A stretch of DNA of 64,000 nt from an uncultured Verrucomicrobiaceae bacterium. GTDB lineage: Bacteria; Verrucomicrobiota; Verrucomicrobiia; Methylacidiphilales; CAYYVW01. Made by a program: the position numbers and the translations under genes. The stretch lies in NCBI GenBank assembly GCA_964473925.1, contig CAYYVW010000001.1, positions 162,155 to 226,154 on the forward strand. The letters are read 5' to 3'. The notes beneath the pieces were generated by a model. That model had not been told where the DNA came from. It made no database searches and was given only the letters and a program-made list of their open reading frames with translations. Positions 1 through 64,000 of the stretch are shown piece by piece; position 1 is the stretch's first letter; each line of letters opens with the position of its first letter.

Positions 1-9
1 GAAAGGCAA

Positions 10-348
10 ATGCACAGCACGCTAATCGCCGTTGCGGGTTCAGATATCGATGCAAAAGATGCTAGCGCGTTCTTTGAAGGGATATCTAAAGGGTTGAAAG
101 AACCTTTTGTAAGTGAGTCAGGCAATCCAATTTGCCGCTTACCAAAAGAACATCTTTACCGAGAAATGTTCACCCATGCTCAAGCAATTGAAAAGTTGCC
201 TACTAGAAAAGCAGTGCATGCCTATCTATGCAAAAAACTAGGAGCGGCGCTTGTGGGCGATTTAGATGCATTTAATAAGCTTTGCTTTCGCATCGGTCTC
301 AAAGCAGGAAAGCAAGGAAGGCCTAAAAAGAGGACACGAGAACAGTAA
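10..348 (+). CDS. Hypothetical protein of the element, basic C-terminus (GRPKKRTREQ); frame is open to position 1, so it may be 5'-truncated by the window
   Basis: ORF track. No stop codon in frame between position 1 and the ATG at 10. No family recognised. Confidence 0.4.
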   Translation: MHSTLIAVAGSDIDAKDASAFFEGISKGLKEPFVSESGNPICRLPKEHLYREMFTHAQAIEKLPTRKAVHAYLCKKLGAALVGDLDAFNKLCFRIGLKAGKQGRPKKRTREQ

Positions 349-474
349 ATCAGGGTCCTCAATGTTTCCGCCTAGTTGAGTTAATTAGAGCGGCATGAAA
401 GTATATCTCTCGATACACAGCAGGCAATTTGCCTGCGCCTCCACTACGCACTTCGGTTCAGCAAGGAGGGTCTC

Positions 475-759
475 ATGAACGAGATCAAACTCCTCGCCGA
501 ACTGAAACTGCTTGAAGGCACGAGCAGCATCAAAGCGCTCGCTGACTTAACCGTTGGCTTACCGAGCGGTGACCTCACCATTCGCGGCCTGCGTGTTATC
601 CATCAGCCAAGCAAAGAGGCCTGGGTAGCCTTCCCTCAATCGTCTTACGTCAAAGACGGTAAACAAATTAATAAAGATATTCTTATTCTCTCGCGCAGCT
701 TGAGAAAAGAAGTCTGTGACCTGGTTTTGACCGAGTATGAACGATCAACTCGCGTCTAA
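475..759 (+). CDS. SpoVG-family DNA/RNA-binding protein
   Basis: IKALADLTV...LTIRGLRVIH...AWVAFPQ...LRKEVCDLVLTEYER aligns by eye with Bacillus SpoVG (MRAIASITLD..VVHDIRVI..LFVAMPS...IQDAVLTEYHR). An AGGAGGG Shine-Dalgarno lies just upstream. Confidence 0.75.
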   Translation: MNEIKLLAELKLLEGTSSIKALADLTVGLPSGDLTIRGLRVIHQPSKEAWVAFPQSSYVKDGKQINKDILILSRSLRKEVCDLVLTEYERSTRV

Positions 760-1648
760 CGGATTCCCGCGCGTCCTGAAAGCCTCTGACGCGCTGGAAG
801 GGGCATACGGCGGTAACAGCCATGCCGGGTGGGTGGAGCCTCAAGCTCCGCCCACCTTTGGCGGGCCTGCCGGAGCCCCCGGTAAAGAGGCTTCCCGGCT
901 TATGCCAGCGAAGGGCTCGCCGCCTTTACTTGACCCTCTTAAGCATAATCGCAACACGGCCCGGCCATGTTCCTGCGGTCGATGGAGTGTGGGGACTCAA
1001 GAGAAGATTGGCTTTCGCTACGTAAGACTCGGCTGCAAACGGTGGACCTGTCCCCGCTGTGGACCTCGTAAAGCTAAACGCGTTAAACACGCGATTATCA
1101 AACAGGCTCAAAGCCAGGATTTACGTCGCTTCCTAACGCTGACATTGGATCCACGCAAATGCACCGCCAAAGAATCCGTTCCATATATCAAAAAAGTATG
1201 GGGAAAGATGCGAGTATCGCTTAAGCGAAAGCTAGGAAGCTCGCCGAGCTTCATTGCAATTCTAGAGCTGCAAAAGTCTGGATATGCCCATCTGCATGTT
1301 CTGGTGAGCTGTTACATTCCACAGCAGTGGATCTCCTCGGCGTGGCAGGGAGTTGGCGGCGGGCGCATCGTTGATATTCGCCATGTCGACGTACACCGCA
1401 TTGTCCCCTACCTGGCCAAGTATCTGACCAAAGAACTGCTACTGACGGAAGTTTCCCGTAAAGCACGTCGCTTTACCACGTCCCGGGATATTCGGCTCTT
1501 TGAAAAGACCACTACAGGAACCTGGACCTTAGTGAAATATCCATTGGAATTATTGCGTCTATATCTTGGCGCGCTGGTTGTTCAAGAGATACCTAGCGCC
1601 GAAGGTGAACTGGATGGATTCATTTCTTTACGAAGGATTGAAGTATGA
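737..1648 (+). CDS. HUH-superfamily rolling-circle replication initiator (Rep) with N-terminal Cys4 zinc motif
   Basis: Three Rep motifs are present: motif I FLTLTLD, motif II (HUH) YAHLHVLV, motif III (catalytic Tyr) VPYLAKYLTKE. A Zn-binding-like pattern CSCGRW...CKRWTCPRCG precedes them. The start is uncertain (an alternative Met lies at MPAKGS). Confidence 0.75.
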   Translation: MNDQLASNGFPRVLKASDALEGAYGGNSHAGWVEPQAPPTFGGPAGAPGKEASRLMPAKGSPPLLDPLKHNRNTARPCSCGRWSVGTQEKIGFRYVRLGCKRWTCPRCGPRKAKRVKHAIIKQAQSQDLRRFLTLTLDPRKCTAKESVPYIKKVWGKMRVSLKRKLGSSPSFIAILELQKSGYAHLHVLVSCYIPQQWISSAWQGVGGGRIVDIRHVDVHRIVPYLAKYLTKELLLTEVSRKARRFTTSRDIRLFEKTTTGTWTLVKYPLELLRLYLGALVVQEIPSAEGELDGFISLRRIEV

Positions 1649-2049
1649 GCACACAGCCCAACATTACGTTACGTGGCTTGCTGCCGCAGCCAGAGCTTCC
1701 CTGTTATGCCTGCCAAAAGGCTTTGCCGATACAAACAACCAAGGTCGGCAAACCTTATCTGACCTGCAATGAATGCGGTATTCAGATATTTATTCGCGGG
1801 AAAGCGGGAATAGCTAGAATTGAAAAATTAAAGGAATTTTGGAGCAAGGAAATTAAACCTTCTCTGGAGATTTGTCTTTTAATTAATCAATTAAAGCAGC
1901 TCAGAGAGCAGCGCGAGCAGTTAAATCCCGGGTTAACGGAAATTTTAGGAGAAAATGAAAAGTTAGCTCACGATCGAAAAATATTGGATAAACAAATCGA
2001 ATTAATTGAGGAAAAAATCAAAAAGGCAGAAATAAGAGGTGCTTTATGA
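1645..2049 (+). CDS. Zinc-ribbon (CxxC...CxxC) plus coiled-coil protein, unknown function
   Basis: CYACQK...(16 aa)...CNECG is followed by a heptad-like K/E/L-rich tail. The start ATG overlaps the Rep stop (ATGA at 1645..1648). Confidence 0.55.
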   Translation: MSTQPNITLRGLLPQPELPCYACQKALPIQTTKVGKPYLTCNECGIQIFIRGKAGIARIEKLKEFWSKEIKPSLEICLLINQLKQLREQREQLNPGLTEILGENEKLAHDRKILDKQIELIEEKIKKAEIRGAL

Positions 2050-2354
2050 GTCTATCGATTAAGGATGTATTTAATGCTCGGAGATTACCGGGACGAATTC
2101 CCAGCGAATTAGCGGCAGAATTATTGGGATTCTCCAAAGTGGATATTCCCGTATTAATTCAGAATAAATTGCTCAAGCCTTTGGGAAAGCCTGTGCCAAA
2201 TGCTCCAAAGCTGTTTGCAACGGTGAATATTCAGGAATTAATGAGTAATTCGGAATGGTTATCTAAGGCAACCAAAGCCCTTTCGGCCTATTGGAAGGGA
2301 AAGAATGATAGGAAATTCCAGAATTCCTCGGAAAGCATGCGAATGGTAGCTTAA
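2046..2354 (+). CDS. Helix-turn-helix, excisionase-like DNA-binding protein
   Basis: IPSELAAELLGFSKVDIPVLIQNKLLKPLGKP resembles an MerR/excisionase-type HTH. ATGA overlap with the preceding gene (2046..2049). Confidence 0.5.
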   Translation: MSLSIKDVFNARRLPGRIPSELAAELLGFSKVDIPVLIQNKLLKPLGKPVPNAPKLFATVNIQELMSNSEWLSKATKALSAYWKGKNDRKFQNSSESMRMVA

Positions 2355-2620
2355 TTCGCCTTATTATTCCGCCGCAATATTCGCAGCGACGCGGCTTCAT
2401 TCGGATAAAGCATGGCAACGGGCACTTTTAAGGCCTTGGCGAGCCCTGCAATTTCAAAATCCGCTACCCACCTCACCTGCGCTTCAATTTTAAAGACAAT
2501 ATCCCGGCTCGCGTCCCAACCGAATAATTGACAACGCACCGCTAATTCCGTTTGCGACATTTTCTGTTGCAAACGGATTTTCTTAACAATTGGGCCAATA
2601 ACGTTTCTTGGCTTAGTCAT
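2351..2620 (-). CDS. XRE-family (HTH_3) transcriptional regulator
   Basis: IGPIVKKIRLQQKMSQTELAVRCQLFGWDASRDIVFKIEAQVRWVADFEIAGLAKALKVPVAMLY is the canonical XRE/Cro-CI helix-turn-helix layout. It is divergent from the cargo operon. Confidence 0.8.
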   Translation of the reverse strand: MTKPRNVIGPIVKKIRLQQKMSQTELAVRCQLFGWDASRDIVFKIEAQVRWVADFEIAGLAKALKVPVAMLYPNEAASLRILRRNNKAN

Positions 2621-2621
2621 G

Positions 2622-2639
2622 AGCGCTGAATTCAGCGCT
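2622..2639. promoter_or_regulatory. Operator 1: perfect 18-bp palindrome AGCGCTGAATTCAGCGCT, immediately followed by TTGACA (2639..2644)
   Basis: Read directly from the sequence; it is self-complementary. It lies 2 nt upstream of the XRE start codon and overlaps a consensus -35 hexamer for the + strand cargo gene. Confidence 0.6.
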
Positions 2640-2668
2640 TGACAATTAATCGAATATTTCCGAATTAA

Positions 2669-2685
2669 TGCGCTGAATTCAGCGA
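2669..2685. promoter_or_regulatory. Operator 2: second copy of the same palindrome (TGCGCTGAATTCAGCGA)
   Basis: The core GCGCTGAATTCAGCG is identical to operator 1. It is centred about 46 bp away and 20 nt upstream of the ATG at 2705. Confidence 0.6.
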
Positions 2686-2704
2686 ACTCAGGAAATTAAT
2701 TCTT

Positions 2705-3142
2705 ATGAGCCTTAAAGATTTGGCATTTAAATATTGGGATGCTACCGGAACCGTAATTGATTTAATCAAAAAGTGGGAACCAGGGGCCTGTAACACGGAA
2801 AAGGATTACGAGGAAAGTCTTTGTAAGTACTTGCATGAGAACTTGAAAGACATTCAGGTTACCAAGCAGTATGCAAATGGCCGATTTAAAGCGGATATAG
2901 TGGTTGGAGATAATGTAATTATTGAAATTAAATACAATTTAAAGACTACCGGGCAATATCAGCGCTTGAGCGGGCAATTACAGAGTTATAAAAGTTGGAA
3001 AGGCAATACGATCTTATTACTCACTGGAACTACGGAGCCAAATTTAAAGAAGCAGGTGATTAAAGATATCGCGGATAATTTTACTGATCAGTTCGGTGGC
3101 ACATTTGGCGGAGCTGATAAAGTGGTTTTGATTGAGAAATAA
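2705..3142 (+). CDS. Small PD-(D/E)xK (restriction-endonuclease-fold)-like protein
   Basis: EKDYEESLCKYLHENL (helix with acidic residue) ... KADIVVGDNVIIEIKYN fits the D-x(10)-E-x-K catalytic pattern of the fold. No sequence family could be named without a search. Confidence 0.5.
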   Translation: MSLKDLAFKYWDATGTVIDLIKKWEPGACNTEKDYEESLCKYLHENLKDIQVTKQYANGRFKADIVVGDNVIIEIKYNLKTTGQYQRLSGQLQSYKSWKGNTILLLTGTTEPNLKKQVIKDIADNFTDQFGGTFGGADKVVLIEK

Positions 3143-3272
3143 ATCGAACCGCGTCTTGGAATTGCCCATGATGCGCTGAGTTTATTTTAAATTCGGTATT
3201 GGTTAATGATAGCCATAACAGCTATTGCCCTTAAAATTGGGTTTCAGCCCAAAGGCAAAACTAGCCATTGTT

Positions 3273-3788
3273 ATGCAGTCAAAACCGTCCTCAGAGATTC
3301 AACATCGAGCTATCCACCCTCAAGTTCGAATCGGCCATGTCCATTTAAAGGTAGCTGACTTGGATCGAGCGCTCGCTTTCTATCGTGATGTACTAGGCTT
3401 CGAAATCACACAACGTTATGGGAGCCAGGCAGCATTCCTTTCTGCTGGCGGCTATCACCATCATATCGGACTGAATACATGGGAAAGCGCGGGAGGATCA
3501 CTCCCACCAGCAAATACCACCGGGCTTTATCACCTCGCGATTCTTTATCCAACACGCGCTGAATTAGCGGATGCATTGCGCCGTCTCATGGAAGGAAAGA
3601 TTCCGCTGGAAGGCGCCTCGGATCACGGCGTCAGCGAAGCTCTCTACTTGCGCGATCCTGATGGAAATGGAGTGGAACTTTATTGGGATCGCCCGCAAGA
3701 ACAATGGCCGCGCACTGCTGATGGCGAACTAGCGATGATCACTGAACCTCTCGATTTGGATGCGCTACTGAAGGAAGCAGTTAATTAA
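3273..3788 (+). CDS. VOC-family (glyoxalase / extradiol dioxygenase-like) protein
   Basis: IGHVHLKVADLDRALAFYRDVLGFEI...YHHHIGLNTW...LYHLAILYP...SEALYLRDPDGNGVELYWD is a tandem VOC beta-alpha-beta-beta-beta module. I prefer the ATG at 3273 over the TTG at 3225 given in the ORF track. Confidence 0.8.
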   Translation: MQSKPSSEIQHRAIHPQVRIGHVHLKVADLDRALAFYRDVLGFEITQRYGSQAAFLSAGGYHHHIGLNTWESAGGSLPPANTTGLYHLAILYPTRAELADALRRLMEGKIPLEGASDHGVSEALYLRDPDGNGVELYWDRPQEQWPRTADGELAMITEPLDLDALLKEAVN

Positions 3789-3889
3789 CTATATCGCTGA
3801 GAATTTCAGCTCAACTTTCCTGAAAAATTCGGACAAGAGGATAATTTAAAAATAAATAGCTTTAGTAAAAGCAGAGAATCATTCAAATT

Positions 3890-5065
3890 ATGACCATTGG
3901 CGTCATAATTGACATGGACGAATTAGATAAACCTCCCAAGGTTCCCCCACAGACCACAAATGATTGGTCTTTTGCTAAGGTTTTTGAATTGTCCGCCAAG
4001 ATTAGCTTGGGAATTGCATTTTTTATTTACGGAATAGGTTTTACCATTTGGTATTCCTATTTAGGCCAATTTGGGGTTTATCCACCGAATCTCCCGCAAT
4101 TTAGTTTCTTATCGGCAGCTTCTTGTTATTTATTTTATATAATCCTGTTTCCATTGCCAGCAGGAGTTTTGATTTACCACCTTCTTAAACCAACAGAAGA
4201 ATCATATAAAACTGCCATTGGAGAACTTATTTTAAGATTATGGTTTGTTCCCCTCGTTTTTTTATCAAATTTTTATTTTTATTATAACCAACCAAAAACC
4301 AATTTATCTTTTAGCGATCCACATATTCGTTTGTTTATTGTCATTGGCATTGTAGGAGCAGCCCATGTTCTTATTTATTGGACAAAGAGATTATGGGGCA
4401 AAAACTCAAACAAACCTCATACCATAGGTTGGGAAAAATGGGTTTTTGTTTATCTGGTATGCTTAACGCTCGGGTCCACATATTTATCGCGGGAAATTCA
4501 TTTACAATTCCTCATTTATACGATTTTTGTACCGCTTTTATTTTTCTTAAAGGAAATAGAAACCCTACAAGATTCTAATAGTTTTTATCATACAGAGCGT
4601 TCTCTTAAAATATTCTTGGTAATAATTCTTATCTCAGCACTTGTTACTCATGTTTACTACTTTGCTATTTGGCAATTTGAATCAGTCCCTAGACGATCTG
4701 GAGGCGGTCGGGCTGCTTTAGTCTTATTGCATCCAAAGCAAGAAATGTCTGAACAGTTAATTAGCTCTCTTGAACTACCTAGAAAGGGACATTTTCTAGG
4801 TCCTGTAAGAATGATTTTGCAGACGGAAAATCAAATTATTTTTTTCTTAAAAGATGAATGGGGAAAAAGCGGCAAAAAAATTGCACGTGCTTTAGATTCA
4901 AAGTTAATTGATGGGATACAATATTTAGATGAATCTCAAATTGAAGAAAATTTGAAAAAACAAACAAAGGAAATGGATCTCACTTGGAGTCAAGAATTAG
5001 ACCCCGCAATTAGTTGGCTCAGAAATCTTGTTAAAGAGACGATATTTGCTGAGTTTGCGAAGTAG
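3890..5065 (+). CDS. Polytopic membrane protein (about 7 predicted TM helices) with a roughly 110-aa soluble C-terminal domain, unknown family
   Basis: Repeated hydrophobic stretches (ISLGIAFFIYGIGFTIWY, CYLFYIILFPLPAGVLIY, LWFVPLVFLSNFYFYY, LFIVIGIVGAAHVLIY, WVFVYLVCLTLG, FLIYTIFVPLLFF, IFLVIILISALVTHVYYF). This is the most AT-rich gene in the window. Its 3' end overlaps the integrase 3' end by 35 nt. Confidence 0.6.
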   Translation: MTIGVIIDMDELDKPPKVPPQTTNDWSFAKVFELSAKISLGIAFFIYGIGFTIWYSYLGQFGVYPPNLPQFSFLSAASCYLFYIILFPLPAGVLIYHLLKPTEESYKTAIGELILRLWFVPLVFLSNFYFYYNQPKTNLSFSDPHIRLFIVIGIVGAAHVLIYWTKRLWGKNSNKPHTIGWEKWVFVYLVCLTLGSTYLSREIHLQFLIYTIFVPLLFFLKEIETLQDSNSFYHTERSLKIFLVIILISALVTHVYYFAIWQFESVPRRSGGGRAALVLLHPKQEMSEQLISSLELPRKGHFLGPVRMILQTENQIIFFLKDEWGKSGKKIARALDSKLIDGIQYLDESQIEENLKKQTKEMDLTWSQELDPAISWLRNLVKETIFAEFAK

Positions 5066-6113
5066 CTTTAAACTCCACAATCTTCCCTTCCCGCTTTGCT
5101 TCATAATATTCCAGCGGCAGAGTCACATTCCGGGCTCGCCGCGCGTAGGCACGATGAACGGCATTGCTGTTATGGCCCAGGTGGGCCATTGCTTCGCGCT
5201 CGGGCATTCCGGCGTTGCAGGCGCGCTCGGCCCAGGCGTAACGGTAGCTATGGAGGGAAATCCCCTTGAGACCCAGGACGAGGCAACGCTTGCGGAATCG
5301 GGAGGCGCGGACCATTTCTTCCTGCAAGTGGAGTATGGGAAAAAGCCAACCCGTTTGCGGTAATTGATCCAAAACGGCTTGTAAGCGCGGGCCAATGACA
5401 AGCGTGGCACCGGCGACACGCTGGCCTTCGAGCTTACGACGTTGATACATCAAAAGCTTTTGCTCCAGATCAACGTTATCGCGGTGGAGACAGGCAATGT
5501 CTGTCTGCGAGCCGCCCGTTTCCCAAAGGAGTTCGTAGTAGAGGCGGTATTCAACGTTTGTTTCAGAATCAATAATGCGTTGATGTTCGTCGGCAGTGAT
5601 GCCGCGCTTTTGTTTGTAAACGATCTTAGGCCAGGCACGTTTGGCGAGGACGGGATTGAGGAGCCAGCCAAGGCCGAGGGCGCGGTTGTGGAGAATGCGA
5701 AGCCAAACGTTCGTCGAAACCCCTGCCCTCGGATGGCGGAGGACAGCGAGCAAGTGCGAACTGTCGGTGTAAACGAGCGGGATGTTTTTGAGCGGGAGGA
5801 ATGGCGGGCTAATAATCACTTTCTTCCAACGCCGCAACGTCGCGCCTTTGTACTGAATCGCCATGTCCTCCATAACATCATTCCACGTCCGCGTGACCAT
5901 TTCGGGAGAGCTGGCGGAGAGGTACGTCTTTGCCATCGACACATTCAAATACGGCTGACTGGCCGCTTGGTTGCGCGCGGCGTGCAATTGCTCGGCAACG
6001 GCCTTGCTGCGGGTCTTCAGGGACTCTTGCTTGGCAGTGAGATTGTCCTGAAGATAGAAGACGCCGTTCTTGCGGCGAAACATGCGGAAGCGGTTTTTCA
6101 CGGGATTTTCCAC
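5031..6113 (-). CDS. Tyrosine recombinase / phage-type integrase
   Basis: C-terminal catalytic region: ...ETGGSQTDIACL..., ISLHSYRYAWAERA, AMAHLGHNSNAVHRAYAR (R...HxxR...H...Y pattern). Adjacent to a tRNA gene. Confidence 0.9.
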   Translation of the reverse strand: MENPVKNRFRMFRRKNGVFYLQDNLTAKQESLKTRSKAVAEQLHAARNQAASQPYLNVSMAKTYLSASSPEMVTRTWNDVMEDMAIQYKGATLRRWKKVIISPPFLPLKNIPLVYTDSSHLLAVLRHPRAGVSTNVWLRILHNRALGLGWLLNPVLAKRAWPKIVYKQKRGITADEHQRIIDSETNVEYRLYYELLWETGGSQTDIACLHRDNVDLEQKLLMYQRRKLEGQRVAGATLVIGPRLQAVLDQLPQTGWLFPILHLQEEMVRASRFRKRCLVLGLKGISLHSYRYAWAERACNAGMPEREAMAHLGHNSNAVHRAYARRARNVTLPLEYYEAKREGKIVEFKATSQTQQISSL

Positions 6114-56582: not shown

Positions 56583-57959
56583 CTACCGCGGCACCACTTC
56601 CTGCCCGTGGGCGGTGTCTTTGACCTGCCAGCCGAGAGCGAGGATCTGATCGCGGAGGGCATCGCTCTGGGCGAAGTCCTTGGCAGCACGCGCAGCGGCG
56701 CGGGCATCGACGAGCGCCTGCACATCCGCGGGGATGCCGTCGGGCGGATTTCCGAGACCCAGGATAGAATCGACCGCCCGCCAGACCGCGAGCAGTCCTT
56801 CCGGCGGGTCGCCCGCATCCAGCGCGCGATTGGTCGTGCGGATAAAATCAAAGAAGTAGCCGAGCGCCGCGGAGATGTTGAGATCATCTGCCAGCGCCAT
56901 ATCAAACTCTTCAAGGAACGCGTTGCAAAACGCATCGGGCACTTCCCCCTCCACGGCTACTGGCCGGACGCGCCGGACCCATTCGTCAATGCGGCCGACG
57001 GTGGCGCGCGCATCGTGAAGCCCCGCTTGCGTGAAGTTGAGTTGCTGGCGGTAGTGGACATGCAACAGCGCGTAGCGGATATCCCGCCCCGCATAGCCGA
57101 GCTCGATCAGATCTCGGACCGTGTAGAGATTGCCCAGCGACTTCGACATTTTCTGCCCTTCGACGAGGAGGTGGGCGCAGTGCGTCCAGTATTTGACGAA
57201 CGGTTTGCCGGTCGCGGCCTCGCTCTGCGCGATCTCATTCTCATGATGAGGGAAGAGGAGGTCGATGCCGCCGCCGTGAATATCGAACGACTCGCCGAGA
57301 TGCTTGATGCTGATCGCCGAGCACTCGATATGCCAGCCAGGACGGCCGGGCCCCCATGGGGAATCCCACTTCACGTCCCCATCCTCCTCCGTCCACGCCT
57401 TCCAAAGAGCAAAGTCAGCCACGGATTCTTTCTGGTACTCATCCTGCAGAACGCGCGCGCCGGGCTGCATCCCTTCCCGATCCAGTCGGCAAAGGCAGCC
57501 GTAGCGAGTGAACGCCGCGATACGATAATACACCGAGCCGTCATCGGAGACGTAGGCCGCGCCGAAAATGAGAAGACGCTCAATCAGCGCGATCATCTCG
57601 GCGATGTGATCGGTTGCGTTGGGCTGCGCCTCGGGCCGCTGAATGGCGAGCGTATCCATGTCCTGGCAAAAAGCATCGGCGTAGTACTTGGTGAACTCAG
57701 AGAGTGGCAGCCCCGCCTCGCGCGCGCCGCGGATTGTCTTGTCATCCACGTCCGTAAATTGCATCACGTGCCGCAGTTGGTAGCCAAAGCGCAGCAGCGT
57801 GCGCCGGAGCAAATCCTGCGCCATGTACGTGCGGAAGTTGCCGATGTGCGCGTAGTTGTAGACCGTCGGACCGCAGCAATACATGCGCAGCGTGGGCTCG
57901 AGCGGCTCGATGGATTCAACCTCGCGGCTGAGGCTGTTGTAAAGATGGAGCGTCCGCAT
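56583..57959 (-). CDS. cysS: Cysteine--tRNA ligase
   Basis: CGPTVYNYAHIGN (HIGH region), GWHIECS, KMSKSLGN. Confidence 0.95.
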   Translation of the reverse strand: MRTLHLYNSLSREVESIEPLEPTLRMYCCGPTVYNYAHIGNFRTYMAQDLLRRTLLRFGYQLRHVMQFTDVDDKTIRGAREAGLPLSEFTKYYADAFCQDMDTLAIQRPEAQPNATDHIAEMIALIERLLIFGAAYVSDDGSVYYRIAAFTRYGCLCRLDREGMQPGARVLQDEYQKESVADFALWKAWTEEDGDVKWDSPWGPGRPGWHIECSAISIKHLGESFDIHGGGIDLLFPHHENEIAQSEAATGKPFVKYWTHCAHLLVEGQKMSKSLGNLYTVRDLIELGYAGRDIRYALLHVHYRQQLNFTQAGLHDARATVGRIDEWVRRVRPVAVEGEVPDAFCNAFLEEFDMALADDLNISAALGYFFDFIRTTNRALDAGDPPEGLLAVWRAVDSILGLGNPPDGIPADVQALVDARAAARAAKDFAQSDALRDQILALGWQVKDTAHGQEVVPR

Positions 57960-57980
57960 GCGGCTAAAACAAAAAAGAAA

Positions 57981-58466
57981 TTACGACGGCAGCGTGACGC
58001 ACGCCACGGCCATCGCGGCGATCCCCTCCCCGCGGCCGGCGAACCCGAGCTTCTCGTTGGTCGTCGCCTTGAGATTAACGCGCGCGGCGTCGATCCCCAG
58101 CGCGGCGGCGATGTTCTGCTGCATGCCCGGAATATGCGGCGCGATCTTGGGCGCTTCGGCGATGAGCGAGGCGTCGACATTTTCAATCACGGCTTTGCGC
58201 TCGGCTGCCAGTCGCGCGATCTCCTCGAGGAAAACGCGGCTGGGCGCGTCCTTCCAGCGCATGTCGGTGTTCGGGAAATGGTGACCGATGTCGCCTGAGC
58301 CGAGCGCACCGAGGACAGCATCCGCGATCGCGTGGATGAGCACATCCGCGTCCGAGTGCCCAAGCAGTCCCAAGCCCTGCGGGTGCGCGAGCTCTACCCC
58401 ACCTAAAACAACTTTGCGACCCGGGACGAGCGGGTGGACGTCATAGCCAATGCCAACGCGATTCAT
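57981..58466 (-). CDS. ispF: 2-C-methyl-D-erythritol 2,4-cyclodiphosphate synthase
   Basis: [31 protein letters not shown]. Start at 58466 (MNRVG) preferred. Confidence 0.9.
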
Positions 58467-59833: not shown

Positions 59834-60349
59834 GTGTCGAACGGAAAGATAATCTGCCTGGCGCTTACGGTAACGATGCTGGCAGCTGGCTGCGCACACG
59901 ACCCGACCGAACTCGATCAGAGGGCCAAGATCATGCCGTACCCGCGTCCGTCGAACATTCCAGTCACGCGCTACCACTTTGACGTCAGCCGCGTCCCCGT
60001 GCGCATTCGGATCGAGACGGTCTCGCCCTTTTATTACGACGGCAACGATACGCGCCTCATCTACGCCAAGGTGGTCGATAACGTCGTCCTGCCCAACGGA
60101 CGGCCGCTGATGCCCAAGGGTTCGATGCTCTTTGGCCGGCAGAATAAAGAGACGGGGATCGAGTTTTTAATCACCCGCTATCAACAAGCCGGCTGGGATG
60201 AGTGGACGCTTGCCTCCGGGATTGCCGAGGTCGGCATGCCGGGAAAATATCGAACCGCCTTTTTATCCTCTTTAGCCGTGCCAAAGAGACCCGGCGCAGA
60301 TCGATCCGTGGCTGAAGAATCCAGAACCCATAACAAAATCGCGCGCTGA
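59834..60349 (+). CDS. Lipoprotein, unknown function
   Basis: Lipobox MLAAGC after a hydrophobic h-region. The segment IYAKVVDNVVLPNGRPLMPKGSMLFGR faintly resembles a TrbI/VirB10 barrel strand pattern. GTG start. Confidence 0.5.
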   Translation: MSNGKIICLALTVTMLAAGCAHDPTELDQRAKIMPYPRPSNIPVTRYHFDVSRVPVRIRIETVSPFYYDGNDTRLIYAKVVDNVVLPNGRPLMPKGSMLFGRQNKETGIEFLITRYQQAGWDEWTLASGIAEVGMPGKYRTAFLSSLAVPKRPGADRSVAEESRTHNKIAR

Positions 60350-60373: not shown

Positions 60374-60910
60374 ATGGCCCCGCCTGATCCAACCTCTGTT
60401 GATAACTTAAGCACGACGCCGGATGCTACCACTGCGGCGCTAGTCCAGGGCGCCGGGCGCGGGGTGCCGCCCCTGCTCATCACTCAAGGACTGCGGCCTG
60501 GACAGGTCTGGACGCGCGCAGGATTTTTCAACCGTCTAGCTGCGAATGGGATCGATCTATGTCTCACACAGGGGATTGTAATGTTATTTCTGCAAACAGC
60601 TGAAGCTCAGATATTTATACCTGTTTTCTTCTTCTATTTTATTGCCTGCGATCACTTTTTTAAGCGCTCCCTGGGCAAAATGTTTGTCGGCCTCCATTAC
60701 TATGATGTCAACGGAAACCCACCCGAATCGGGCAGGCTGCTATTCCGCGGATTTATGCGAGTGCTAGGCCCTTTTGCCATTTTATCTTGGCGCAAAACCT
60801 CCATTCTAGATCTATTCAGCGGACTGCGTGTTTTTAACATCAAAACTATAAAAATAAAAAAGCCCAAGGGTCCAGAACCGAGCCGCCGGCAATTCAGTCC
60901 AGTGCGGTAA
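60374..60910 (+). CDS. RDD-family-like membrane protein
   Basis: RAGFFNRLAANGIDLCL...(TM)...FIACDHFFKRSLGKMFVGLHYYD...FRGFMRVLGPFAIL fits the R...D...D spacing with 2-3 TM segments. The N-terminal ~45 aa are disordered. Confidence 0.55.
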   Translation: MAPPDPTSVDNLSTTPDATTAALVQGAGRGVPPLLITQGLRPGQVWTRAGFFNRLAANGIDLCLTQGIVMLFLQTAEAQIFIPVFFFYFIACDHFFKRSLGKMFVGLHYYDVNGNPPESGRLLFRGFMRVLGPFAILSWRKTSILDLFSGLRVFNIKTIKIKKPKGPEPSRRQFSPVR

Positions 60911-61072: not shown

Positions 61073-61948
61073 ATGGCCCCTGTCCGAGCAAAATTGCCCG
61101 ACCCCGAATTCGCGGCCATTCCGGCTCCACGACGGCGCTATCTTTGGGAGCTGGGCGCCGATTTAGAGCGGACCAACTGGTGGCTGTTTGTTACCTGCTC
61201 CCTGCTCCTCGGGTGCACGCTATTACTGGCAGCCGTCGTCGCCATCATCTTTTCTCGGCCGCCGCTGGTCCTCACCGATGACCAAGGCTACGTTAGCTAT
61301 CGCTCGACCGAAGTTTTCCGCCTGGATGAGCTGCGCATCAAAACGTACGTCGAACTCATCATGACTCGGCTCCTGAACATGAATCCGGGCGTGTACGACC
61401 TGGGCCCGATTGCCCTTTTGGCTTCGCCCAAAGTCGTACAAACCTACACGGACCATGCCTACTCGACAGCGCAGGATCGAGTGCGGGTCAACGAGCGGCG
61501 CTATTTTTCCTTCACAGATGTAAAGCGGTTCATTGATAATAAGTTCCCCGATTTGATCGTCCTGGCCGTCCGCGGTGAAATGGCCTACTTCCGCGAGGGA
61601 GAAAACGAGCCCGCCCCCGGCGCTCCTTCCAATCTTACGAGCTTGGCCTCTATTCGTGCGCAAAGCCAAACCGTCACCTACCTCATGTATTTGGAGCAGC
61701 GGAGGCCCACCCCTCCCAACCCGTGGGGCCTGATGACAGTCGGCCTTGCCCAGCAACAGGGAGACGAGGCGAAGGCGATCTGGGATGCTGCGATACCCTT
61801 GTATTCGACCGTTTTGCCAGACGGCACGGTCATTTCGGCGATCAATCAACAAGATATGCAGGCGCGAACACAGCAGGATATCAGCCGAAAAAAATCGGGT
61901 GTGTCGCCGACTTCAACACCAAACCCGGCTAAGCCAACCGCTCAATGA
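61073..61948 (+). CDS. VirB8/TrbF-like bitopic inner-membrane protein
   Basis: Short cytoplasmic N-terminus, one TM (WWLFVTCSLLLGCTLLLAAVVAIIF), then PPLVLTDDQGYVSY...IKTYVELIMTRLLNMN... and a C-proximal PPNPWGLMTV (the NP-x-G motif of VirB8-type NTF2-like domains). Confidence 0.6.
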   Translation: MAPVRAKLPDPEFAAIPAPRRRYLWELGADLERTNWWLFVTCSLLLGCTLLLAAVVAIIFSRPPLVLTDDQGYVSYRSTEVFRLDELRIKTYVELIMTRLLNMNPGVYDLGPIALLASPKVVQTYTDHAYSTAQDRVRVNERRYFSFTDVKRFIDNKFPDLIVLAVRGEMAYFREGENEPAPGAPSNLTSLASIRAQSQTVTYLMYLEQRRPTPPNPWGLMTVGLAQQQGDEAKAIWDAAIPLYSTVLPDGTVISAINQQDMQARTQQDISRKKSGVSPTSTPNPAKPTAQ

Positions 61949-62919
61949 AACGGCATTTCCTTCCTGCTTCGTTATTCATGCTGACGCTGATCTGCGTCGC
62001 CGGAAGTATCGTGGCTACGCATGCTCAAGCGCCGCCGCCTCCGCGGTCCAGCGCCTCGCGCGCCCGTGCGGATGCCAGCCGCAGCCAGCAGGATAACAAC
62101 AACCAAGTCGTCGTTGTCGAAGAGCCGCCGCCGCCTGTTGTCATCAACGGCAAGCGCGCGGAAGAGCTTTCGGAAGACGAGATGATCGAATTTCTCCAAT
62201 CCAAAATCCAGGAGATCGATCAAGAAGAAGGCCAAGTCAAGCTGCTTAAAATAGCACCTGGTTACCCGCTCTCGCTTTTCTTTTCTGAAACGGTGCAGGA
62301 TACGATTTTAGGCGATCCCGAGCTCATCAAAATAAGCCCCACCAACCGCGGGCTTGTTTTAACGGCTGGTGCGCGTGGTGGGGATACCCCGATGACGCTC
62401 GTATTTTCGGGCGGACGGCGCCTTTTCTACCACATCTTCATCGCGCAAAACTTCAGCAATAGCATGACGTCCCTCAAGGTGAACTTCATCAAAACCGGTC
62501 CTTCCGCGGGCAGGAGCGGCAAGCTCATTATGCGCGAAGGCAATTTGGATGTCGCGTACATCGCCAACGTCATTTTCAACTACGATGCGCTCAAAAATGA
62601 GAAGGCGCTCGATGCCCAAGCAATTAAGCGCTTCCCGGTTTTCCGCGTTTCGAACGTCACACCGTTCACCTACTACGACCTTTTCCGTTTTAGCGACGGC
62701 ACGATCGCCCTTACCTTTTCTCTCCGCAATGAAACGGGCCGGCCCGTTCGCGTGAATGAATCCAAGCTGCGCTTTACTCTGGGCAATCTCGAATTTATCC
62801 CCGATTACGCTTCGATCGACAAGTTGCGCCTCCAACCGGGTGAAGCGACCAAGGGCTTCGTGGTGATCATTAAGCCCCCCTTCTCGACCGAACAAAAATT
62901 TGAACTCAATTGGCGGTAG
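61945..62919 (+). CDS. VirB9/TrbG/CagX-like periplasmic/outer-membrane core protein
   Basis: Signal peptide (LFMLTLICVAGSIVATHA). LKIAPGYPLSLFFSETVQDTILGDPELIKISPTNRGLVLTAGARGGDTPMTLVFSGGRRLFYHIFI follows the VirB9 N-domain pattern. ATGA overlap with the preceding gene. Confidence 0.6.
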   Translation: MKRHFLPASLFMLTLICVAGSIVATHAQAPPPPRSSASRARADASRSQQDNNNQVVVVEEPPPPVVINGKRAEELSEDEMIEFLQSKIQEIDQEEGQVKLLKIAPGYPLSLFFSETVQDTILGDPELIKISPTNRGLVLTAGARGGDTPMTLVFSGGRRLFYHIFIAQNFSNSMTSLKVNFIKTGPSAGRSGKLIMREGNLDVAYIANVIFNYDALKNEKALDAQAIKRFPVFRVSNVTPFTYYDLFRFSDGTIALTFSLRNETGRPVRVNESKLRFTLGNLEFIPDYASIDKLRLQPGEATKGFVVIIKPPFSTEQKFELNWR

Positions 62920-62952
62920 GCAAAAGCCCTTAGCAATCCGCTCACGCGCGTC

Positions 62953-64000
62953 ATGTCTTTGACCTGGAAATCAATTCTACTCATCGCCCTGGGGATACTC
63001 GCGGCATGTGCTATTTTGATTTTTGTTTACGTTTACGTCACTAAGCCAGATCCCACGCGCGATATTCGCGAAGACGTGGCACGGCGCAAATCGGGCGTGC
63101 CTTCCACCTCGCAAGCGCTGGGGCAACAAGTGCCGCTCCCCGGCGAAGCGCAACCAGAACAACCCCAGGTGATCCGCGTTGACACACCCGGAGGAGCTAT
63201 TCCTTCCGAAGGAACGTCCACCAACACGCCCTCGCCACTGCCTTTCGAGCCGGGGCCCTTCCCCGCGCCATCTTCCACAACCACAATCTCAGACTTTCCT
63301 TCCATCGTCCCGACTCAAACTACGGCACCTCCGGCTTCTACAGCCGGTGGTGCGACGAGCAGTTCAACCAATCAAGCTCCTCCGCTCACCGCGCCTGGCG
63401 CGGCGACAACCGCTCAACCGCGTTCGCCGGTTTTACCGTTCCCTCAAGATGCCGGATCGGTAACGGCCGCACCCGTTCCCGGAGCGTTGGTCATCCAGAC
63501 CACACCAATTGCCCAAGGCCCCACCAACACCGACCCCCAAAGAAGAGCGGGCGGCACCAACACCAAGATTCAGCGCACACAAATTAAGGACCGCTTTCTT
63601 TTCAATAACACGCGAGATGAAATTTTAGGTAGCAGCCCGGTCATCAGCAACAATCAGCAAGCAGGCGGAGCGGCCTCGCTCAATCTGGAAAAATTTGCAC
63701 CAATCGGAGAGGATATCAGCGTCGTCCTCATGGACAACGTTGCCAGCAACAACTTTGAGGTGAGCGCCGTTGCTGCCGTTTGGTTTGATTTTTACTTCCA
63801 AGGCAATCTACTGCTGCACACCGGCACCAAGCTGCTGGGCACAGCTTCAGCGGGCAAGACGCGCGACCGGGTCCTTATCACCTTTGACCGCATCGTTTTT
63901 ACCGATGGAAAATCGATGGGGATCAGCGCCATTGCCTTAAATCAAGACGGCACTGTTGGTGTCCCAGGCTTTTTGATCGGCAATATTCTCCTATCGCGGC
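62953..64000 (+). CDS. VirB10/TrbI-like protein, 3'-truncated by the window end (not in ORF track)
   Basis: I translated the frame from the ATG at 62953 to the window end without meeting a stop. It has a TM (ILLIALGILAACAILIFVYVYV), then a ~200-aa Pro/Thr/Ser-rich linker, then EDISVVLMDNVASNN...AVWFDFYFQGNLLLHTGTKLLGTASAGKTRDRVLITFDRIVFTDGKSMGISAIALNQDGTVGVPGF, which is a TrbI-type signature. Confidence 0.7.
   Translation, partial: MSLTWKSILLIALGILAACAILIFVYVYVTKPDPTRDIREDVARRKSGVPSTSQALGQQVPLPGEAQPEQPQVIRVDTPGGAIPSEGTSTNTPSPLPFEPGPFPAPSSTTTISDFPSIVPTQTTAPPASTAGGATSSSTNQAPPLTAPGAATTAQPRSPVLPFPQDAGSVTAAPVPGALVIQTTPIAQGPTNTDPQRRAGGTNTKIQRTQIKDRFLFNNTRDEILGSSPVISNNQQAGGAASLNLEKFAPIGEDISVVLMDNVASNNFEVSAVAAVWFDFYFQGNLLLHTGTKLLGTASAGKTRDRVLITFDRIVFTDGKSMGISAIALNQDGTVGVPGFLIGNILLSR

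Follow-up and report, generated by a model that had tools for sequence, protein, structure and literature searches.

A chromosomal gene cluster of Verrucomicrobiota resembling the VirB9/VirB10 core of type IV secretion systems

Comparison with described type IV systems

To our knowledge, VirB4 is taken as the signature common to all type IV secretion systems (T4SS), and the VirB7/9/10 core complex is known only within them. This core is represented in the mating-pair-formation classes MPF_T/F by TraN/O/F of pKM101, TrwH/F/E of R388 and TraV/K/B of F, and also in Xanthomonas. The ComB system of Helicobacter pylori is split into two operons, comB2-4 and comB6-10, and needs ComB4, its VirB4 protein, while the core of Dot/Icm contains the lipoproteins DotC and DotD, the VirB9-like DotH, the VirB10-like DotG, the paired VirB8-like proteins DotI and DotJ and the PilT-like ATPase DotB. 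Here we describe a gene cluster found at the right end of a stretch of 64,000 nucleotides (hereafter, the window) from an uncultured Verrucomicrobiaceae bacterium (contig CAYYVW010000001.1, positions 162,155 to 226,154), at the centre of which three genes, A, B and C, follow each other in the order VirB8, VirB9, VirB10. The cluster looks like an undescribed variant of the T4SS-type core. In the reading that we prefer, to which a probability of around 60% is given, the operon encodes a T4SS-type core complex that spans the envelope, has become a fixed part of the core genome in a verrucomicrobial lineage (domesticated), and is possibly run by an ATPase of the pilus type.

The cluster shares with the VirB7/9/10 core the two-domain VirB9 fold, found in B, and the layout of transmembrane (TM) helix, proline-rich linker and barrel, found in C; genes for lipoproteins are present alongside, and the 8-9-10 gene order is accompanied by translational coupling. 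The sequences, however, are very distant from those of the known systems, as had been suspected in a preliminary description of the window made by a model from the letters alone: B and A miss the thresholds of the Pfam families CagX and VirB8, respectively, and no match was obtained by tblastn among plasmids. The lipoproteins (170-280 amino acids, aa) are also unrelated in sequence to VirB7. In contrast with canonical T4SS, the cluster has no VirB4, VirB11, VirD4, VirB2, VirB3, VirB5 or VirB1, and it belongs to the core genome and is vertically inherited.

ComB and the cluster are both chromosomal and non-conjugative, both include a lipoprotein together with VirB8-position, VirB9-like and VirB10-like proteins, and both are devoid of relaxase and coupling protein. 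The differences are that no VirB4 was found in the cluster loci, that no competence genes are linked to them, and that an ATPase of the PilB/GspE type adjoins the cluster in four lineages, whereas ComB has none. The parallels with Dot/Icm are the two lipoproteins, the paired VirB8-position proteins and an ATPase of the PilB/PilT/GspE superfamily, with DotH among the fold matches of B and DotG as a weak match of C. By contrast, DotO (VirB4), DotL (VirD4) and the other Dot/Icm parts are absent from the cluster, and the ATPase is of the long PilB/GspE type (680 aa), not DotB/PilT-like. With respect to type II secretion systems (T2SS), type IV pili (T4P) and Tad, the ATPase of the relatives is a bona fide member of the GspE/PilB family, but there is no GspF/PilC, prepilin or secretin in the cluster, its envelope parts are of the T4SS type, and no such ATPase is found in the window.

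The A-B-C triplet and its protein families

Genes A (61073-61948, 291 aa), B (61945-62919, 324 aa) and C (from an ATG at 62953 to beyond the window end at 64000) are consecutive on the plus strand. As read from the sequence, the start of B and the stop of A overlap in an ATGA at 61945-61948, indicating translational coupling. Gene C is missing from the list of open reading frames (ORFs) because its plus frame has no stop before 64000, in such a way that only 349 of its 443 codons (62953-64000) lie in the window. These three points had already been made in the preliminary description, and inspection of the ORFs and of the sequence bore them out. The rest of C was obtained from a Logan contig of 17.5 kb (L012), which matches the window with 100% identity throughout their overlap, extends it to the right by about 9.5 kb, and encodes the full-length protein of 443 aa. 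The best, or the sole sensible, library match of each of A, B and C is the T4SS family expected for it, and they follow the canonical gene order, so the resemblance is not due to chance.

Protein C belongs to the TrbI/VirB10 family, with an inner-membrane anchor, a proline-rich periplasmic linker and a C-terminal barrel. The N-terminal TM helix (hydrophobic segment at residues 1-33) is followed by a linker, about 180 aa long and rich in Pro, Thr, Ser and Ala, and then by a TrbI barrel that carries an inserted helical region. The full-length protein from L012 matched Pfam TrbI (PF03743) with 56.3 bits (cutoff 35, E = 5e-15), covering positions 8-181 of the 188 of the profile, and eight relatives scored 47-72 bits. 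The fragment encoded in the window reached 32.7 bits (E = 8.7e-8), staying under the 35-bit threshold because it is truncated. The layout and the TrbI signature proposed in the preliminary description are thus both present. Further library matches, to VirB10 (E = 0.002) and DotG (E = 0.012), were weak, and when the family profile was run against the PDB sequences, the sole matches were VirB10 (6gyb_c, Xanthomonas, 1.7e-4) and CagY. A hidden Markov model (HMM) built only from MPF_T VirB10 proteins gave E values of 0.002-0.12 against C, a near-miss which indicates that C is very distant and that Pfam TrbI is the valid test. Moreover, its TrbI domain had no tblastn match in 72,556 plasmids.

Protein B is a Sec-exported, two-domain periplasmic protein of the VirB9 family, although a remote homologue, as supported by fold matches, by profile-profile alignment and by a link to CagX through its distant relatives. 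Its N-terminal signal peptide, MKRHFLPASLFMLTLICVAGSIVATHAQA, had also been noticed in the preliminary description, and the VirB9 assignment made there agrees with the three lines of evidence. The AlphaFold2 (AF2) model, obtained from a 9-sequence alignment, has an overall predicted local distance difference test (pLDDT) of 68.5 and two beta-sandwich domains, approximately at residues 60-183 and 200-324, with pLDDT values of 70-89 in these beta-rich domains. When this model was compared with the PDB by Foldseek, the nine best matches were all VirB9 homologues (E from 1.6e-12 to 5e-6), among them TraK of F/pED208 (1.6e-12), TrwF of R388, Xanthomonas VirB9, Legionella DotH and CagX, and the N-domain superimposed on TrwF with a TM-score of 0.74-0.79 and a root-mean-square deviation of 1.7-1.8 Å. 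In hhalign comparisons with ten VirB9 proteins taken from annotated plasmids, the probability was 92% (E = 6e-7).

Direct sequence matches of B were much fainter. The NCBIfam VirB9 model (TIGR02781) gave E = 0.019 and 14.6 bits against a cutoff of 217.7, thus not reaching the threshold, B itself showed no match to Pfam CagX at E ≤ 1, and its family profile found no VirB9 among the PDB sequences. An exhaustive profile search of 1.84 billion proteins returned only 42 cluster representatives of the B family, the most distant of which match Pfam CagX (PF03524) with up to 43.8 bits (cutoff 34.2) and E values of up to 3e-11. A lone gene for a 199-aa relative of the B N-domain (Pfam T2SS-T3SS_pil_N, 23.8 bits) was also detected at L011:9887-10486, on a different contig of the same metagenome-assembled genome (MAG) as L003. 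It lies between the genes for NfeD and for the flotillin FloA, with no other cluster genes near, which shows that the VirB9-N-like domain is also used in an unrelated membrane context.

Protein A is probably the VirB8 counterpart. This assignment, in which homology is unproven, comes from its position, its coupling to B, its topology, the spacing of an NPxG motif and a hint of an NTF2-like fold. A is bitopic, with a single hydrophobic TM helix at residues 36-60 approximately, followed by a periplasmic domain. NPxG is the hallmark motif of VirB8, and in A it appears as NPWG at residues 216-219, invariant in the main A lineage. The distance from the centre of the TM helix to NPxG is 153-166 aa, versus 162-180 aa in nine plasmid VirB8 proteins, with a chance probability of about 0.003. 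The preliminary description had called A a VirB8-like protein ending in NPWG; its position, topology and motif spacing agree with the first part of that claim, for which neither profile nor structure comparison demonstrated homology, and the second part does not hold, as a variable tail of about 70 aa extends beyond the motif. None of the Foldseek matches of the pLDDT-40 model of A was better than E = 0.019, and NTF2-like folds, including the VirB8-like OrfG, dominate this list of weak matches. Word-index protein searches returned just A plus one paralogue. The A family was found in all the related loci described below, often as a tandem duplicate: two highly diverged paralogues (about 22% identity) are encoded side by side in L001 (8448-9998), L023, L025, L030, L032, L034 and L035, and there is a single copy in the window. 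These pairs are reminiscent of the bitopic pairs DotI/DotJ or PilN/PilO.

Conservation, accessory genes and surroundings of the cluster

Related loci were collected by species-genome scans, metagenome scans (which contributed seven of them) and contig look-ups, giving a total of 30 from around 16 lineages. Every locus with a taxonomic label belongs to Verrucomicrobiota, including Methylacidiphilum fumariolicum, M. kamchatkense, Methylacidiphilum sp. Yel, LP2A and several MAGs. According to the family HMMs, A-B-C is present in every locus that is long enough, D in most of them and E in several, with L006-L008 reduced to A-B-C. The flanks vary with the lineage, and across verrucomicrobial orders they are all of the housekeeping kind (parB with a sigma factor, genes for nonulosonic-acid synthesis, lolA, nuo, dnaE). 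The dN/dS ratio (nonsynonymous to synonymous substitutions) between close pairs was 0.09-0.30, indicative of purifying selection. The cluster is therefore a vertically inherited and functional module of the core genome of Verrucomicrobiota, not a mobile one; the preliminary description had left the choice between core and accessory to the conservation of the locus in related genomes, and the sharing of A-B-C by about 16 lineages among changing housekeeping neighbours answers it in favour of core.

An alignment of 34 sequences was too diverse to yield search patterns. In public annotation, C is labelled as 'TrbI/VirB10 family protein', the ATPase of the relatives as 'PilB' or 'GspE/PulE', and A, B and D as 'hypothetical'. 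Full-text literature searches returned nothing describing the cluster, or TrbI or VirB9/10 in Verrucomicrobia or Methylacidiphilum. The A-B-C proteins of L006, from a MAG labelled 'Akkermansia muciniphila', are 72-82% identical to those of L007 and L008, labelled 'Methylacidiphilum sp. Phi', and the three have the same reduced layout; since such identity is hardly compatible with labels that belong to different classes, one or both of them look wrong.

The preliminary description had considered a unit of three genes. The triplet itself stands, but the unit begins earlier, at 59834, with two further genes, and continues for about 1.9 kb past C with two more, in such a way that the arrangement is best explained as a seven-gene chromosomal operon, lipoN-RDD-A-B-C-D-E, with A-B-C at its centre. 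The first gene, lipoN (59834-60349, plus strand), encodes a lipoprotein of 171 aa when read from the GTG at 59834, with a signal peptide that ends in the lipobox LAAG|C. In L012 (3343-3858) the gene call for lipoN began at an internal ATG (138 aa), by which the signal peptide and the lipobox are lost; the GTG start restores them. L001 and L023 each have a lipoN homologue at the equivalent position, and these carry lipoboxes too (LCS|C and LTG|C). No Pfam or NCBIfam family was matched by lipoN, which we consider a candidate VirB7-type partner. The second gene (60374-60910, plus strand) encodes a small polytopic membrane protein of 178 aa with a faint match to Pfam RDD, the orthologue from L001 reaching E = 1.2e-5. 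In L001, L023/L033 and L028 the gene immediately before A is also an RDD gene, and two lineages besides that of the window keep both lipoN and RDD genes together with A-C. Downstream of C, and seen on L012, D (282 aa) is a lipoprotein whose lipobox Cys is invariant and whose profile picked up only noise among the PDB sequences, and E (308 aa) is a membrane protein with three TM helices and a coiled coil.

The 20 kb upstream of the cluster contain housekeeping genes, namely ispF, cysS, tmk and those for DNA polymerase III delta', an M42 peptidase, alanine racemase and a class I tRNA synthetase. The cysS and ispF genes had been recognised in the preliminary description, and the library matches (tRNA-synt_1e and YgbB) confirm them. 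Next to E on L012, on the opposite strand, there is a set of ABC transporter genes and then a parA-like gene. The GC content of the cluster is that of its surroundings, with no shift.

Some other features of this DNA were recorded. The set that follows the cluster, at L012:9627-14754, is convergent with it and consists of four genes (DUF4340, ABC_transp_aux or GldG-like, ABC-2 permease, ABC ATPase) seen in this genome only; these genes were rejected as members of the system, as they are on the opposite strand and adjoin the cluster in no other lineage. At the other end of the window, positions 1-6000 have a GC content of 0.43-0.49, versus 0.53-0.61 elsewhere in the window, and may be a foreign or otherwise atypical segment. 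An ORF of 563 aa antisense to cysS/ispF (56607-58298, plus strand) is almost certainly no gene but a shadow ORF of the GC-rich DNA, and similar antisense ORFs overlap A and B, such as those at 61223-61852 and 62359-62895, both on the minus strand.

Missing components, a pilus-type ATPase and possible roles

HMMs were built from plasmid VirB2, VirB3, VirB4, VirB5, VirB6, VirD4 and VirB11 proteins and used to search for T4SS parts in the window, its 9.5-kb extension and the 30 related loci, that is, 31 stretches of about 0.5 Mb in all. VirB4 was found in none of them (HMM from four plasmid proteins, best E = 0.27), and no match to VirD4, VirB2, VirB3, VirB5 or an MPF_T-type VirB6 was obtained in the window or the 30 loci. 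The VirB11 HMM matched a single protein family, a GspE/PilB-type ATPase present in relatives. The prepilin motif was not found in the cluster loci, relaxase and integrase families were absent among the annotated flanking genes, no tRNA genes were found flanking the cluster, and the right flank on L012 contains no VirB4, VirB11, VirD4, VirB6, pilin or relaxase. The preliminary description had seen neither a T4SS ATPase nor a relaxase upstream, which is also the outcome of the searches of the window (VirB4 and VirD4 by HMM, relaxase and integrase only among the annotated flanks). It had also held that the lack of any T4SS ATPase nearby would count against the assignment to T4SS; VirB4, VirD4 and VirB11 are literally lacking nearby, but this leaves untouched the homology of B to VirB9 and of C to VirB10.

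Four lineages have the GspE/PilB-type ATPase (680-700 aa) next to the cluster, in one of two arrangements: it is encoded upstream and divergently in Methylacidiphilum and LP2A, and downstream and convergently in the lineages of L001 and L023. Its scores are about 1e-90 against GspE/PilB and 1e-11 against VirB11, with 7e-93 for TIGR02533 and around 1e-65 for GspE, PilF and PilB of the PDB; DotB is also listed among its relatives. In the L001 and L023 lineages, the ATPase is followed by a gene for a polytopic protein of 515-528 aa, whose sole sensible Pfam match is TrbL/VirB6 (5e-4 and 7.6e-3) and for which a profile search of the PDB sequences yielded only noise, and then by one for a large secreted protein with low-complexity and coiled-coil sequence. 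The 590/908-aa neighbour was considered as a divergent VirB4 and rejected, since it lacks a Walker A motif, bears a signal peptide and is made of low-complexity and coiled-coil sequence.

No GspF/PilC platform appeared in Pfam scans of the related loci, and there is no secretin inside the cluster. A 298-aa protein with a secretin domain is encoded on the minus strand about 4 kb upstream of the cluster in one lineage only (L001:3809-4705, L028:4498-5394). A TXSScan survey of M. infernorum V4, which counts systems and not single genes, reported no T1-T9SS, T4P, Tad or T4SS of any type (PMC4793230, Table S3). The PilB-like ATPase of Methylacidiphilum is hence left with no other recognised partner system.

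In the preferred reading, B, C and one or both lipoproteins would assemble a ring in and under the outer membrane, as VirB7/9/10 do, and A, present as two paralogues in many relatives, would take the role of VirB8 at the inner membrane. The complex may serve as a conduit for a macromolecule, either a surface or secreted protein or DNA in the course of uptake. Its energy would most likely come from a hexameric ATPase of the PilB/GspE type, favoured as the motor since in none of the lineages is the cluster linked to VirB4, VirD4 or VirB11; in the genome of the window such an ATPase would have to be encoded elsewhere, if present at all. A more specific version, which we put forward tentatively and regard as possible, is a trans-envelope machine of a class not described before and exclusive to Verrucomicrobiota, in which a core of VirB6-like, VirB8-position, VirB9 and VirB10 proteins plus lipoproteins works with a PilB/GspE ATPase and without VirB4, as a hybrid between T4SS and type IV filament machines. 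Among the three readings offered in the preliminary description (the edge of a conjugative element, a ComB-like machine for DNA uptake and a lineage-specific apparatus reusing the VirB8-10 scaffold), the last one fits best.

A number of observations speak against this proposal. Only one out of 14 members of the A family matches Pfam VirB8 (PF04335), and the match of A itself (E = 0.038) covers just the TM region; hhalign comparisons of A with ten plasmid VirB8 proteins gave probabilities of 3-13%, with forced alignments that place NPWG on NPLG, its family profile found no VirB8 among the PDB sequences, and its AF2 model, from a two-sequence alignment, is of low confidence (pLDDT 40). D, E and lipoN are without detectable homologues of known function, and no substrate, pilin or peptidoglycan hydrolase was identified for the cluster. 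With regard to the motor, only four of the about eleven lineages with enough flank have the ATPase next to the cluster, the link being one of gene neighbourhood, and in the window genome no ATPase of this kind occurs in the 61 kb on the left or in the 9.5 kb on the right. Finally, a lone VirB4 would escape TXSScan, and the three species of Methylacidiphilum in which the cluster was seen are others than that of V4.

A VirB4 encoded elsewhere, as it is in ComB, is precisely what a split chromosomal type IV system would have, be it for DNA uptake or for another task, with the operon as its VirB7-10 core and VirB4 (and VirB2/3/6) at another place in the genome. The content of the operon matches comB6-10 in kind, the cluster is chromosomal, conserved and non-mobile, and the lack of relaxase and coupling protein is what would be expected of an uptake system. 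Nevertheless, no VirB4 turned up in the 31 stretches, TXSScan gave no T4SS in M. infernorum V4 (where, as said, a VirB4 on its own would not score as a system), and a PilB/GspE ATPase that recurs next to the cluster, in two arrangements, is not a feature of ComB, so that we consider such a split system, the main rival of the preferred reading, rather unlikely. A conventional effector T4SS or the edge of a conjugative or integrative element, with the remaining parts to the right of the window, was suggested by a VirB8-10-like triplet cut by the window edge, and appears highly improbable now. On L012, C is followed by D, E, the opposite-strand DUF4340/GldG-like ABC genes, unrelated to T4SS, and parA, with no VirB4 or VirD4; there is no tRNA or integrase boundary and no shift in GC content, the cluster is kept with different housekeeping flanks across verrucomicrobial orders, and its TrbI domain is without match in the plasmids searched.

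Transport itself could also be put in question. VirB10 is a TonB-like energy sensor that spans both membranes, and a VirB9/VirB10-like ring might have been domesticated as a scaffold for structure or for energy transduction (membrane tethering or gating), without any secretion ATPase. This would suit the fact that most lineages, that of the window included, have no linked ATPase of the secretion families, as well as the reduction to A-B-C in L006-L008; the purifying selection indicates that the genes are useful but not for what purpose. However, C has retained its TrbI barrel in full, together with the inserted helical region that in VirB10 forms the outer-membrane channel, and the ATPase, the VirB6-like protein and the large secreted protein linked to the cluster in several lineages point to an active machine, so a non-transporting scaffold seems to us an improbable outcome.

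If the preferred reading of a domesticated T4SS-type core is true, the core complex would be reusable with a different motor, and this would mark a new point at which T4SS and type IV filament machines branch; alternatively, Verrucomicrobia would have a cryptic, split T4SS overlooked by the detectors now in use. If the tentative hybrid machine exists, it may be the sole large apparatus for secretion or uptake in Methylacidiphilum, where TXSScan finds none. The cluster would also offer a first way into the study of how Methylacidiphilum and its relatives export macromolecules or take up DNA.

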